From a plasmid: DNA of 64,000 nucleotides. Position 1 is the stretch's first letter. Every line of letters starts with the position of its first letter. This document shows positions 15,001 to 21,000 of the stretch, piece by piece. Made by a program: the position numbers. Location of the stretch: NCBI RefSeq assembly GCF_057098645.1, contig NZ_JBXSPU010000002.1, one strand, 5' to 3'.

Positions 15001-18000
15001 GACCATGTCAATCCGCCTTGGAATAGGCATGACGGAGAAAGATCCGCCGGAAAAGTCTGAGGTTCCTTCCCTGCCCCAAATCCAGCGACCTGAAGGTGGC
15101 CAGGCTTCAATGACCCTCTCCGGACTTCTGAGTTTGTTGTGGACTGAAGCCGGTCTTAATGTCTGGTATCCGAATATGGCCGGGAAGCGAAATGATTCGC
15201 TGGTTCGATACCGGATGTTGGAAGCCGCAAAGCAGATTAGATCGGGTAGAGCATGTATTGGCGACCATCTTTTTATCGGGGTGGCGGACTCTAAAAGCAA
15301 AGTGGCCAGTGAGCAGGTTCAACTGCTGTCGTCGGCGGAACTGAGCGACAAACGACTGCTGCTGCTATCAGTACTGCCGCGCTATGACGCAGAAAAGCAT
15401 GAGAAGCCGCTGAAGTTTCTACCTATGCGTAACTTCGGCGGTATGCCCCTTACCTTCTTTAACTCAGACGGGCACTGGGATAGCGTGAAGCGGCGATTCC
15501 CTCTGGAATATGCCGCCTGGAAAAATGGGGGCAAAGTTGTTGTTTTTGCTCTTACATCTCCCGTATCGGTGACCAGTAGAGGTATCTCTGCACGAGCTCA
15601 TCAGATAGTGCTTATGCTGGTGAGTGATAACTGGATACCTCTGGACTCCTCCTACGAAGCGATAGTGTCCCGTAAACTTGATGCCGAACACCGGCACTAT
15701 GTTAAGCCTATGCGGTATGACGCCAGTGCGAGCGATGTTTTCCCAGATTTTTATTTACTGGATACACGAAGTGATAAGCCGTTCCCGATGGAAGTTTTCG
15801 GGATGTCGACACCTGCCTATCTTGCGCGAAAGGAACTTAAGAAGGCGTATTACAACCAGGAATATGGGGCCTATGGATGGTGGCACTGGGATGCTACGGA
15901 GAAGACTGAATACCAGGAACTCCCTCATTTCCCGGAAGCTAGACGATAAAATTAACCCGAATCACAACCTTAAAATTGGGCTAAAAATGGCGTACATACT
16001 TTCGATGAGTGAGCAGGTTAAACTGAAGGCGTTTTTGGCGGCAGTACTCGATGACTACAAACTGGGAGCTATTTCACAACAGCAAGCTGTTGGCGGGATC
16101 ACTAGCCTGGTTGATGCTATTGAGATCAGTGATTCGGGGAAAATCAGCCTAATGCTGTCGGAAGGACGTAAACTCCTGCGAACGGGATAAAGAGCCTGTG
16201 GACGCCAGGAATTTAAGTCTATTGCAAATTCCTGGCGGGAGCAGTTATGTCGTCTTTTTGTTTCGCGGTTTTGATGCCCCAGAGGATTTAGGTTTGATGG
16301 CAACTGCGCCGGTCATAGCTTCGGTAAGCTGCTTGATTGTTCCTCGTAAAGACTCGGCAATGGTCTTTTCCGCATTGAGTGTCGCTTCCATGGAAATCAT
16401 CTGATTCCTGAGCTGTTGAAGCTCTTCTGTCTGATCTGTTTGCACTTTTTTGGCAACCAGGCTCTCATCAGCTAAGCGTTGTGCTTCAGCTCGTAGTTGG
16501 TCATTCTCCCCTTTAGCTGTTGAGAGCTCCGACCGCACGAGCGTCAGGGTCGTGTCCTTTTCGGCTAAAGATGAGCTCAATTCAGAGGAATGGGTCTGTA
16601 CTGAGGAAAGGTCCTGTTCAAGCTGACTGACACTGACTTTTAAATCAGACACGGTCCGTTGTAAGTGATCATTCTGGCTTTTGAGGGCTGTCAGCTCTAC
16701 CTGCTGCGCTTTATTCTCATCATTCAGCTGCTTCTGATACTCCTGCTGCGAGGCCAGTTCCTGTTTGCGCTCACTCAGTTGCTGGTTCAGTGTCCCTACT
16801 GTCTGCTGTAAAAGCTGGATCTCGTTTTGGGCATGCTGTAATTCACTTTGAGTTCCTGCCAGAGTTTCTTCTGCTTCCTGAAGTGAATCTTCTAATTTAC
16901 TGGAGAGTTCACGCTGCTGCTCCAGCAGGTTAATCAGGTTAACTTTTTCGTTATTCAGGACTGTAGCCTGTTCTTTCGACTGTGACAGTTCTTCCAGAAT
17001 CTCAGCATTCCGCTGCCGTAACTGAGTAATTTCTGCCTTCGCAATTTTCACGCTATCACTCTGGATAGCCGTATAGCTTAAGCGGAAGTACCAGGTGATA
17101 AACGCAGTAAAATCACTGAATGCATCTTTAATCTGGTCAGGGATTTCAATCGCGCGTGCTTCCTCGGGCACCTCGTCCACGTATTGCTTGTAGGCCGCCA
17201 GCATCTCCTGAGCCCTGGCAAAAGACCCCCCCATTTTATCCCGCAGCCAGTGGGCTTTGAAAAACTGGTCGAGGTTTTCGGTGCTGATGCTCTTATCGAG
17301 GCAGATTTGTTCAATCTCGGTGAAATATTTAACCTTAGCTATTGACGAGTAAGGGGAATTCTTCAGTAACTCGGGGCTTAGAGGGGGCGTTTTTGAAGTC
17401 TCTTCACTTAAACTGGACGCAGTTTGTTCATCCCCGTTCATCAAATTTACATTGTCAGTCATCATTCTTATCCTTTGGCCGGGATCTGGTTGGCAAAATA
17501 AATGCTAATCAGGTCATTCAGTGCGTTATGCAGGCTTTCACACTCAACTGAGATATGGACGTTACCATTTCCGAACAATCGGAACTTCCAGCCCTTCGGG
17601 TCGGTAATGTCACCCGTGAAATCGGTTTTCCGTAAGACAGCAAGCCGATCGTACATGTTCATTCCACTGCCGACAGGCGGTGTTGCTGCATTGGAGCAGA
17701 TGCAAACGACATTCTCAAAGTCGTTTAAATAGAAGAGATTATCCTGAGAAAAGCCATTATATCTCATCATGTTCGAGTCGGGAAAAATGCCGCGTAGTAC
17801 CAGTTTTTTTGGCATCACAAATTGCTAGGCATTAGTTTTATACCGGCGATCAAGCTGGCATAGCAGATCAACAAACCCTTCAGCAAGCGTAATGCTGCGC
17901 ATGGCAACTGCCTGGCGCAATGTACTGCGGATTACGGTTAACGACGCAATTGGCGGAGCGTTCCGGAGAGACTCACGGAACTCCGCCCGCTGGTTGTGAT

Positions 18001-21000
18001 TCCAGAATCGGTCAATACCCGTTTCTTCAAAAAGATTGTTCCATGTCTTACGGTCTATTTGCTGTCGCCCTTCCTCGATGCTTGCGGCCAGGGACGCAGG
18101 AAGGCCAAAAGCATTAGGGGCCATAATTTTGCTGTTAAACAGTGAAAACCCGCAAATTGCTGAGGCTTCGGCAATCAGCGTCATGCCGTCCAGAAATTTT
18201 TGCATAGCGGCATCACGACTACTGGCGAGTTGTTCGGTACGGGTACTCAACTTCAGTTCCGGCTGCGAATTCATGCTCATTTCACGATCCTTTTCCCACT
18301 GTTTTGGCTGAGAGATTTTCACTGGCCTATCCACCTCTCTAGTTAAAAAAATTCTCGTAGCGTCATTTATAGTAACGCCTTTACTAATGACTAATGATGA
18401 AAAAGATTAGCACACAGATGTCGGGTGACCAACAACCCGCAACCCGTTAAGTGGCGATCGCATTCCCTGAATGCACAACCATTGAGCTATATGACTGATT
18501 AATACGGTTTTTATCCGCAATTACACTATGAGGGGGGCTATGTGTACTATGGGATTTACCCCGAATTAAATCCCATAGTACATAAAATGAACTAAATAAA
18601 GCCGAAAAACGTGACGGTGTCACCTCTGGGGTGTTTATTTTGGTATCTAGTTATTAGTAAAGGCATGACTAAATGTATAATGGGGTAGTCGTTTACGTTT
18701 AGGGCTTCCTCTTTGTCGTTATGGCGGATGAGGGGCTGTTACGATAGTTAGACAGTGATTACACACATTTGGCTGAGGGCTACAAAATGGCGGCGTCGCG
18801 AATTACACACCTAATAACGTCCTGTACCAAAGGTAAGCACAGCCAGTGCGGCTCCATGCCAGAACTGAGTATCCGGTCTGGACAGACACCAGAAGAGGCA
18901 ATGTCCAGCTGGGCAGCAACGATTAAACGGTCGCAAAGTGCTTCACCGGTACCGGCCCTGTCGCTCTATGCCGGTAATCACTGGTCAACGGCAAAAGAGA
19001 TATTACGGACAACTGAGAACCTGGAGTTGTGGGTGATCTCGGCCGGGTTGGGTTTTTTGAATAGTCGTGACCTCGTGGACGCTTATGAAGCCACCTTTCA
19101 TGATTTACCGTTCAGTCACCGACAATGGTGGCGGGAATTAACAAATACATTCGGGAAAGAAAGGACGGCGAAATCTATTGAGACATTGATGGCAGCAAGA
19201 CCTTTCGATGATTATGTTATCGCTGCCTCCCCCGTTTATATCGAGGCGACGGAGGATGATATCCTGGCAGGGGCAAGCAAATTAAATAATCACATTGCCC
19301 AGTTGACGGTTGTAACGTCAGGGGAATATTCTGGACTACTTGAATCCTATTTAATTCGTAGCGAATCCCGTATGATGCGCCAACTATCAAGCAACATGGT
19401 ATGTCTTAACATCAAACTTGCTCAATATATTATTGGAAGTCGGCGCTATTCATGAACCGCACTGATGATTCCATAACGCAACTATCTTCACTTTATGAAC
19501 GGCTCGGAGCTGTGGCTCATGAACTGGAATATTGTAAAATTCTGCTCCCTGAACACTCTGAACAACTGGATCTTGATGCCGCAGCAACATATGCAATGAT
19601 GCTCCGCATTGAACAGTGGGCAGCAAACGTTAAGAACGCATATAATACCAACACATACGACCCTTTCCATATTAACGAAAAGGACAAACAACTAAGAAAT
19701 CAAGAGGAAGAAAATCAATATTAAAAGGTCTCTCCAGTAACCGAAAGTAATAATCGCATGAGACAGACGGCGATTTTATCTAATCTTGCGGAGTTGGCAC
19801 TACAGAGGAACTGGCAAGTGATAATGCATTTGTTTCCATACGCGGGGTGGTTAATGTCTTTAGGTACCAATGATTGATATCATGCGCCCAGAAAATCTTA
19901 CGCGTCTAGCTGGCTCAAAATAATAAAAGAGTGTAATATCGCAAAGTATTCTATTGATTTTATTTATTACTCTTAGTGAGGTCATATGTCCGAAGCACTC
20001 AAATCATTAAACAACATTCGTACTCTTCGTGCGCAGGGCCGTGAACTGCCGTTAGAGATCCTTGAAGAACTGCTGGAAAAATTAAGCGTTGTTGTTGAAG
20101 AACGACGTCAGGAAGAATCTTCAAAAGAAGCTGAGCTGAAAGCGCGTCTGGAGAAGATTGAATCCCTGCGTCAATTAATGCTTGAAGATGGAATTGACCC
20201 TGAAGAGTTACTGAGTTCTTTCTCTGCAAAGTCCGGAGCACCTAAAAAAGTTCGCGAACCGCGCCCTGCGAAATATAAATACACTGATGTTAATGGTGAA
20301 ACGAAAACCTGGACTGGCCAGGGGCGTACCCCTAAAGCACTGGCCGAACAACTTGAAGCCGGTAAAACACTGGATGATTTCCTCATCTAAGTTGAAATTA
20401 AAATCGCGAACAGCTCAGTTCAAAAGCCACTTTTCAGTGGCTTTTCTTATTAAGCCTATGTTTAGGAATATTCAAATAATCTAGGGTTTAATGACAATTG
20501 TTTTGCCATCAGGTAGATAAACCCCTATTAAACGAAGGACAAAACCACGCCAACCAGAATTTGCTTCCTTTATGCAGCGATACAGTTCGTTATTTTCACT
20601 TTTCAGTTTATTCCATTCAAGAAAAAGAGATCTCCGGATCTAACTCTGAGATGTGTTTCACTTCGTTGTTTATGCGTACAGTATTGATACCATTCCCAGT
20701 CATAAAAAGTCACCGTAGGTTTGATAAACAGGTTGAACATTGACAAAACTACTTTGTAGTAAGCTTTATCAAATTCAATTCTAAATCAGTTCTAAGTTAT
20801 TTGATGGCAGATATAACCGACAATTAGGAAAAAGGTGATGCCGACATATATCATCGTTAATTGAAGCGTACATGGCATATCTTGTTCTTTCGGGATTTTT
20901 ACTCTATTGCCTCTTAGGTGATGCTGCCAACTTACTGATTTAGTGTATGATGGTGTTTTTGAGGTGCTCCAGTGGCTTCTGTTTCTATCAGCTGTCCCTC

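Follow-up and report, generated by a model that had tools for sequence, protein, structure and literature searches.

A cluster of tightly packed minus-strand open reading frames (ORFs) was analyzed at positions 16245–18334 of a 64,000-nucleotide stretch of plasmid DNA (RefSeq assembly GCF_057098645.1, contig NZ_JBXSPU010000002.1; hereafter, the window), which is backbone of an incompatibility group HI1 (IncHI1) plasmid. The locus is probably a two-gene backbone operon of IncHI plasmids, composed of a nonsense-split DUF4942 gene and a gene for a divergent KfrA/TlpA-type autoregulatory protein of 406 amino acids (aa). The initial annotation had described a three-gene operon, and three minus-strand ORFs are indeed present, encoding 169 aa (17825–18334), 116 aa (17468–17818), and 406 aa (16245–17465), but the real genes number two. 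One reading frame runs through both the 169-aa and the 116-aa ORF, with only TAG-CAA-TTT between them; thus, although the 2-bp and 6-bp gaps that had been taken for tight gene packing both exist, the latter is an in-frame stop codon plus two codons. The packing of the genes on one strand did hold up: the arrangement is kept across plasmid lineages, and the DUF4942 and coiled-coil genes are therefore probably co-transcribed.

A DUF4942 gene followed by a gene for a 387–406-aa homologue of the coiled-coil protein was found in five lineages (IncHI1, IncHI2, and three metagenomic), with a 2-bp gap or a 1–4-bp overlap between the two. The IncHI2 pair is 63% (DUF4942) and 43% (coiled-coil protein) identical to that in the window. 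In the plasmid database PLSDB, 1430 plasmids carry DUF4942 at ≥60% identity and 1430 carry the N-terminal domain (N-domain) of the coiled-coil protein. No coiled-coil partner gene was found at more distant DUF4942 loci, including those of pOXA-48 and Klebsiella MOBH plasmids; within DUF4942, a translationally coupled partner of this kind is a feature of the IncHI clade alone.

Architecture of the 406-aa protein and its probable relationship to KfrA and TlpA

The 406-aa protein (WP_010892342.1; gene 16245–17465, minus strand) is R0158, "tlpA," of the IncHI1 archetype R27, and an identical protein is annotated in R27 and pYPE10. Its gene is preceded by a Shine-Dalgarno sequence, AAGGA, at 17471–17475. 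Residues 1–33 (17367–17465, minus strand) form a Ser/Thr/Pro-rich N-terminal extension, which is variable in the alignment, has a predicted local distance difference test (pLDDT) score below 50 at the start of the model, and has no counterpart in KfrA or TlpA. Residues 34–140 (17046–17366, minus strand) make up a head that is conserved in all five lineages, is modeled by AlphaFold as helical throughout, and carries the motif HWLRDKMGGSFARAQEMLAAYKQ; this region is a candidate for a divergent KfrA_N-type helix-turn-helix domain. Residues 141–385 (16311–17045, minus strand) form an uninterrupted coiled coil of heptads with a high content of Leu, Gln, and Glu, and the protein ends, after the conserved rod-end motif AEKTIAESLRGTIKQLTEAM, in a basic Gly/Ser/Lys tail at residues 386–406 (16248–16310, minus strand). 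Across the five lineages, the head is conserved as HWLR(N/D)xVGGSFxRAQEM...Y, then VPEEAR..IP..I, and the C terminus as AEKTIAESLRGTI..L..AM(A/T)G, then the basic tail.

The heptad-like stretch of about 250 Gln/Glu/Leu-rich residues noted initially was confirmed over approximately 245 residues by periodicity and register analysis, as was the basic Ser/Lys-rich tail, GAVAIKPKSSGASKPRNKKTT. Proline is absent from residues 141–385, and hydrophobic periodicity at 3.5 residues had a power of 0.728 compared with 0.225 ± 0.072 for shuffled sequences, a value reached by 0 of 500 shuffles (approximately 7 standard deviations). A single heptad register was recovered in nearly all 28-residue windows from about residue 141 to 392, and was weak near 239–266. 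At the head end, the rod is predicted to be one long helix as far as residue 177 (pLDDT 84–94). The protein thus has the long alpha-helical coiled-coil tail of KfrA-type proteins.

Comparison of the whole protein with NCBIfam, PADLOC, PHROGs, and Pfam returned only coiled-coil noise (SMC, Rad50, JetC), far below the cutoffs. Searches of large databases with the head, as a single sequence or as a five-lineage profile, found only IncHI-type relatives and fragments, and a search of PDB sequences with the N-domain profile gave only chance matches (E of 0.05 or worse). Three other identities were considered and rejected. An SMC/Rad50-type ATPase is not indicated, as NCBIfam matches cover the rod only, at 18–38 bits versus cutoffs of 567–1087, and there are no Walker A/B heads. 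The "ATP/GTP-binding protein" label on some records implies a P-loop that has no support from Pfam; the IncHI2 protein has an AGGGTGKS pattern, in its disordered tail, and the window protein lacks it. A JetC/LmuB defense component was discounted because PADLOC-DB 2.0 matched only the rod regions of JetC, LmuB, ZorA, and PbeC, at 30 bits or less.

The protein had been likened to KfrA in architecture but not in its N terminus. The likeness in architecture was confirmed, but the dismissal of the N terminus was too strong, because a weak and reproducible similarity to KfrA_N/TlpA was detected. The comparison set contained KfrA, KfrB, and KfrC from R751, TlpA from pSLT, and eight TlpA-like plasmid proteins; a KfrA_N/TlpA profile of 10 sequences was compared with six IncHI-type N-domains. 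In a MAFFT alignment, TlpA and KfrA fell in register with the IncHI head motif. Profile–profile comparison (hhalign) gave a score of 23.1 (P 0.0024), collinear over 87 columns that include the ELPxEV / (E/D)IPD(Q/E)(I/V) segment, while 300 column shuffles scored 10.8 ± 2.1 with a maximum of 20.3 (0 of 300 reached 23.1) and the reversed profile scored 11.0. A KfrA_N/TlpA hidden Markov model (HMM) scored all six IncHI heads in hmmsearch, with P from 1.2e-6 to 5e-3; the IncHI2 head reached 15.2 bits (P 1.2e-6) and that of the window protein 7.7 bits (P 2.7e-4). The reciprocal HMM built from the IncHI heads matched TlpA at P 4.8e-5, and for the six heads, the observed HMM score was reached by 0–7 of 500 sequence shuffles each (top 1.4%). 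Pfam KfrA_N (PF11740) matched one of the six IncHI-type heads at 0.001<E<0.1, with TlpA and R751 KfrA strong as controls. Taken together, these comparisons are weak evidence for remote homology of the head to the KfrA_N/TlpA helix-turn-helix.

A second resemblance lies at the C terminus, where LRGTIKQLTEAMTGA...KKTT parallels LRGRLEALETVMAQG...RKKT (given also as SGGRKKT) in R751 KfrA, with an LRG...AM...KK motif common to both proteins. Statistical support from hhalign was weak here too (P 0.033; reached by 1 of 200 shuffles). Independently of these comparisons, two R27 papers list R0158 as "tlpA" in their supplementary tables: it occupies 144,482–145,702 of R27, and the entry for the deletion Del14, which starts at 144,480, includes "R0158: tlpA." KfrA-type proteins are classified by predicted secondary structure, not by sequence (PMC7783346). 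Because of the profile similarity, the R27 name, and this basis of classification, the 406-aa protein is filed here as a divergent KfrA/TlpA-type protein that stays below the Pfam threshold.

TlpA of pSLT (PSLT048, 371 aa), likewise plasmid borne, is by the literature a coiled-coil autorepressor with temperature-dependent DNA binding, and was the best single-sequence hhalign match to the IncHI head (P 0.0075). The two proteins share a small helical head (LRNxVGG...R......EYQ, then ELPxEV), a long coiled coil, and a C-terminal ...LRG...L....LMAAL.G tail. They have no similarity at the level of BLASTP, and the IncHI protein is longer by approximately 45 residues at its N terminus, with a longer helix ahead of the GGS turn. 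The gene context also differs, as the 406-aa gene stands second behind DUF4942, whereas no gene closely abuts pSLT tlpA on either side. A true TlpA orthologue exists separately on the IncC plasmid pN18S1677-1 (L023:901-2016) and on other large Salmonella plasmids (approximately 290–320 kb), with 79.6% identity to the pSLT protein across the first 93 residues; TlpA-type proteins are therefore spread more widely among resistance plasmids than pSLT alone would indicate.

KfrA of the IncP-1 and IncU plasmids (R751, RK2, RA3) likewise combines a helix-turn-helix head with a long coiled-coil tail (342 versus 406 aa). Shared with the IncHI protein are an LRGxLxxLxxxMxxG...GG.KK motif at the C terminus, a candidate operator overlapping the promoter region, and carriage by a low-copy conjugative plasmid. 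KfrA rods are described as Ala-rich, whereas the 406-aa rod is rich in Gln, Leu, and Glu, and the candidate IncHI operator is a 7-N5-7 palindrome, in contrast to the five 9-nt direct repeats of the RA3 KfrA operator. Homology of all three ORFs to a kfrABC-type operon with conserved synteny was not found: no kfrA-kfrB-kfrC order is present, the gene order being reversed with the coiled-coil gene last, and DUF4942 is unrelated to KfrB and KfrC (hhalign probability below 0.3% against either R751 protein). In RA3, kfrA is also the last gene, behind kfrC. KlcB was considered as a further relative of DUF4942 and proved unrelated by comparison.

Palindromes in the divergent intergenic region and proposed autoregulation

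A 19-bp palindrome with the consensus TTAGTAA-N5-TTACTAA forms one conserved block in the upstream alignment of four lineages. Two copies lie in the window, 285 bp apart and both inside the 434-bp divergent intergenic region: O1 (18369–18387; TTAGTAAAGGCGTTACTAT on the minus strand), the candidate operator within the conserved upstream block, and O2 (18654–18672; TTAGTAAAGGCATGACTAA), found by pattern search on the side of the DUF6884 gene. With up to one mismatch allowed, the pattern matched twice in the 64-kb window compared with 0.08 matches expected, and no shuffle gave two. In the window, the center of O1 (18378) precedes the ATG of the DUF4942 gene (18280) by 98 bp, and the same distance separates palindrome and ATG in the IncHI2 plasmid pC629 (5903 and 6001); it is approximately 102–103 bp in loci L009 and L011. 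The IncHI2 palindrome is a perfect 9+9, that of L009 has perfect 7-bp arms, and L011 carries a symmetric change in both arms (CTAGTAA...TTACTAG). O1 has an extra direct half-site, ATTAGTC, just upstream, and its right arm overlaps a TATAAA hexamer resembling a -10 element. O2 is present in R27 and p52323CZ_VIM, and L009 has a second exact copy of the palindrome. In the window, O2 lies approximately 115 bp upstream of the divergent DUF6884 gene (start at 18787 in the annotation of the NCBI Prokaryotic Genome Annotation Pipeline [PGAP]), which is followed by a 90-aa ORF and an H-NS gene; through the palindromes, both divergent units may be under a single regulator. The palindrome is absent from loci whose DUF4942 gene has no coiled-coil partner.

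KfrA-type proteins have a helix-turn-helix head and a coiled-coil tail and are autorepressors acting through an operator that overlaps the promoter, and TlpA is a KfrA homologue whose DNA binding is temperature dependent (PMC7821693, PMC7783346). By analogy, the 406-aa protein is probably an autoregulatory DNA-binding coiled-coil protein, possibly temperature responsive. We hypothesize that the coiled coil would give parallel dimers or higher oligomers, whose dimeric head would bind the palindromes O1 and O2 in the divergent promoter region. Binding at O1, overlapping the protein's own -10-like element, would repress its own operon, as KfrA and TlpA do; binding at O2 would possibly repress the divergent DUF6884 operon too, and repression may be relieved when the coiled coil melts at higher temperature. 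Published R27 microarrays are compatible with this model and not specific to it: R0158 is well expressed, going from 2355 arbitrary units (a.u.) at 25°C to 3819 a.u. at 37°C, R0159 rises from 725 to 1932 a.u., and R0159 to R0162 are 1.9–2.7-fold higher at 37°C.

Several observations weigh against an autoregulatory KfrA/TlpA-type protein. The HH-suite probability for the N-domain match is only 12%, hhalign of the head against R751 KfrA alone was not significant, and Pfam KfrA_N matched neither the window protein nor the IncHI2 N terminus at E≤10. The all-helical AlphaFold model of the head, built from six sequences, is of moderate confidence (pLDDT 71; predicted template modeling score [pTM] 0.41), and Foldseek with this low-confidence model returned the protein's own family and no KfrA-like structure. 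The kfrA gene stands first in IncP plasmids and the 406-aa gene second in its operon, and no korA-incC-korB partition module adjoins the locus. The palindrome is absent from L007, the most divergent pair; the -35 element of the proposed O1 promoter is poor; and a scan for promoters and terminators yielded no signal above shuffle expectation here, the O1 promoter included. The temperature effect on R0158 is only 1.6-fold. Finally, an R27 derivative with Del14, which removes R0158 through R0164, is stable in E. coli MG1655.

A different view is that the 406-aa protein is a scaffold or structural coiled coil, its head neither DNA binding nor homologous to KfrA/TlpA, with motif likeness that is convergent or due to chance and palindromes bound by another regulator (DUF4942, a host factor, or another plasmid repressor). 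The low HH-suite probability and the lack of structural neighbors of the head beyond its own family would be as expected for such a protein, as would the lack of a Pfam domain at any threshold in the window protein and the confinement of the N-domain family to IncHI-type plasmids, with no intermediates found in 5.8 billion proteins. We nevertheless regard a scaffold as rather unlikely. The head similarity is reciprocal, collinear, and above shuffle controls for six of six family members; the C-terminal resemblance to KfrA is a second and independent one; the overall architecture is identical to that of KfrA-type proteins; and the palindrome is confined to loci that have the coiled-coil gene. 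An autoregulatory protein of KfrA/TlpA type is therefore the interpretation retained here.

The suggestion in the initial annotation that the locus could be a partition, stability, or defense module gained little. KfrA-type proteins are further marked by assembly into filaments and by contact with the partition proteins IncC/KorB, but no ParA/ParB-type genes adjoin the operon in the annotated neighborhood; the two partition modules of R27 lie elsewhere, in the Tra2 region. An essential role in stability is disfavored by the stable Del14 plasmid, so any maintenance role would be accessory or host dependent, as reported for KfrA. A defense role received no positive support, with PADLOC returning coiled-coil noise only.

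The DUF4942 gene and its amber codon

The two small upstream proteins, initially said to match nothing recognizable, are the halves of a member of a known family, DUF4942 (PF13708). In Pfam, residues 91–168 of the 169-aa ORF match model positions 2–80 and residues 3–108 of the 116-aa ORF match positions 86–188, so that the joined halves give a full-length collinear match in one frame. Because the start shared by homologues is the ATG at 18280, the gene is assigned to 17468–18280 on the minus strand (813 bp, 270 codons), and the 169-aa ORF appears to start too far upstream. Joined, the two halves match an intact 284-aa cluster of 372 member sequences at 97% identity. The reading frame itself is not intact: alignment with homologues places an in-frame amber codon, TAG, at 17825–17827 (minus strand) where intact 270–284-aa homologues have Gln (CAG), and PGAP already annotates a pseudogene ("DUF4942 domain-containing protein, internal stop"). 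The nonsense split is thus the reason that a raw ORF list contains two small "genes."

DUF4942 comprises 2274 representatives at 50% clustering, most of them stand-alone proteins of approximately 265 aa. Conjugative plasmids and genomic islands carry such proteins, examples being the one from the leading region of pOXA-48, YdiA-like proteins, and L0010 from the SRL island of Shigella. The upstream gene is a full-length, collinear member of the family, and its identity to the pOXA-48 homologue is 22%, against the 63% to IncHI2. The AlphaFold model predicts a bundle of helices at the N terminus and a small alpha/beta domain at the C terminus (pLDDT 87.6, pTM 0.81), a predicted fold common to the DUF4942 members in AFDB, and Foldseek with this model against AFDB50 returned only members of the family. 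Unlike the relatives named above, the window copy is interrupted by an amber codon. Neither the halves nor the intact form had matches in NCBIfam or PADLOC, and PHROGs gave families of unknown function only. In a pOXA-48-type IncL/M plasmid (L006:4965-5825), the DUF4942 gene was observed in the leading region.

The wider family hints at a role in DNA modification or establishment. Among the 150 best representatives, 17 (approximately 11%) carry a C-terminal S-adenosylmethionine (SAM)-methyltransferase domain with VLEPSAG and NPPF motifs, and some AFDB members are labeled N6-adenine methylase. The neighbors of the pOXA-48 gene are DGQHR-domain, Hha, DUF1380, antirestriction (ardA), and ssb genes, and in Klebsiella MOBH plasmids DUF4942 lies near psiA, SNase, PLD, and H-NS genes. 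The IncHI pair could accordingly be imagined as an establishment, anti-restriction, or defense-related module acting on DNA that enters a new host, with DUF4942 as a methyltransferase-associated DNA-recognition domain partnered by the coiled-coil protein, and the local neighborhood (Dcm-type methylase, DUF1173, thermonuclease, PLD, and H-NS) would suit it. This is very unlikely for the IncHI pair, however, which differs from the methyltransferase-fused proteins in that its DUF4942 lacks the fusion, and which has no adjacent amino-methyltransferase gene; no PADLOC model covers the DUF4942 halves, the SMC/JetC/LmuB matches of the coiled-coil protein are rod noise, and most IncHI1 plasmids carry the gene as a pseudogene yet have spread successfully.

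The distribution of the amber codon was surveyed with a 71-mer centered on it, against 282 related PLSDB records. The TAG-bearing 71-mer was exact in 204 of these, including R27 and pO111_1, while the remaining 78 fell in the 95–99% identity band, equivalent to about one mismatch per 71-mer. All eight of the latter that were listed are annotated with an intact DUF4942, including pNDM-CIT, and the 78 plasmids appear to be intact for the gene. In p52323CZ_VIM, an intact 813-bp gene has CAG at the codon within an otherwise identical 90-bp stretch. Two IncHI1 lineages have been described (PMC5390554), and among the sampled records the TAG/CAG split matches them. A single CAG-to-TAG nonsense mutation has inactivated DUF4942 in the R27-like IncHI1 lineage, to which the window belongs. 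Past the stop, the TAG allele differs from the intact one in three amino acids (C to F, E to G, and I to V), each a departure from the family consensus, by which all three non-synonymous changes are derived in the TAG lineage; small as the numbers are, this suggests relaxed constraint after the stop. The window and p52323CZ_VIM differ at 43 of 1221 nt in the coiled-coil gene (3.5%, clustered in residues 247–395) and at only 7 of 813 nt in the DUF4942 gene (0.8%), a contrast that a recombination tract or rapid evolution of the rod could explain.

The three-gene picture might still be functionally right if the halves worked separately, through re-initiation at a GTG-ATG three codons past the amber codon or through UAG read-through: the stop falls in a non-helical stretch at the boundary between the helical and alpha/beta parts of the model, in-frame GTG and ATG codons follow within 9 nt, no other stop or frameshift interrupts the downstream half, at least 204 plasmids since R27 have kept the TAG allele, and probes for both R0159 and R0160 gave microarray signal. 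It is nonetheless highly improbable, since the internal GTG/ATG has no preceding Shine-Dalgarno sequence, the stop comes two residues past the family-invariant Asn of the YKTN motif, the three downstream changes all leave the consensus, and the low divergence of the lineage can explain the absence of further decay.

Plasmid setting and significance

The 2.7-kb region around the operon is 100% identical in tet(X4) plasmids and many conjugative plasmids of approximately 190 kb (type IncHI1A/MOBH/MPF_F) from E. coli, Salmonella, Klebsiella, and Citrobacter, and is also matched by R27. Backbone genes flank it on both sides: a Dcm-type cytosine methyltransferase gene, a ~55-aa ORF, a DUF1173 gene, and a 67-aa ORF on one side, and a DUF6884 gene, a 90-aa ORF, and a plasmid H-NS gene on the other. 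The DNA-related genes at 12903–15949 and 18769–20390 form a conserved IncHI block, whose members are the Dcm-type C5-methyltransferase (475 aa), the ~55-aa ORF, DUF1173 (431 aa), DUF6884, and an H-NS paralogue of 134 aa, which corresponds to hns (R0164) of R27; farther away are thermonuclease and PLD genes. IncHI2 and related lineages carry the same block. The DUF6884 and 90-aa genes are upstream of the plasmid H-NS gene sfh on the same strand.

The 67-aa gene (15987–16190, plus strand) is convergent with the 406-aa gene. Between them, 10 bp past the 406-aa stop, a hairpin with a 10-bp stem, CCAGGAATTT-N11-AAATTCCTGG, was read from the sequence at 16205–16235 (minus strand). It is a possible terminator; it has no T-tract on either strand and was missed by the terminator scan. 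An insA ORF of IS1 was observed at 20972–21247, approximately 580 bp past the H-NS gene. In pYPE10, insA is followed by aadA22, intI1, IS26, blaTEM-1, and qnrS1, and the backbone block therefore adjoins the resistance region in such plasmids.

The DUF4942 Pfam family, the PGAP pseudogene call, and the R27 name tlpA were already known. What is new is modest: the statistics for head homology, the conserved pairing of DUF4942 with a TlpA-like protein, the candidate palindromic operators, and the lineage distribution of the amber allele. The locus is fairly ordinary and does not overturn current understanding. IncHI1 and IncHI2 plasmids are, however, major carriers of multidrug, tet(X4), and mcr resistance, and roughly two thirds of the genes in their backbones lack an assigned function. 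Assignment of the DUF4942 pseudogene removes two phantom "hypothetical proteins" from this backbone, and among sampled records the amber codon is a simple marker that separates R27-like from pNDM-CIT-like plasmids. R0158 and the TTAGTAA-N5-TTACTAA palindromes offer a candidate regulator–operator pair, and the KfrA-type class would be extended to the IncHI group.

A bolder proposal, which we consider quite unlikely, is that the IncHI protein is a coiled-coil thermometer that controls its own operon and the divergent DUF6884/90-aa genes through the palindromes, that DUF4942 is its partner in the manner of KfrC, and that the amber loss was adaptive. If true, the thermometer would be a previously unrecognized temperature input into IncHI plasmid physiology, and loss of the DUF4942 partner would be an adaptive mark of the globally dominant R27-like lineage.

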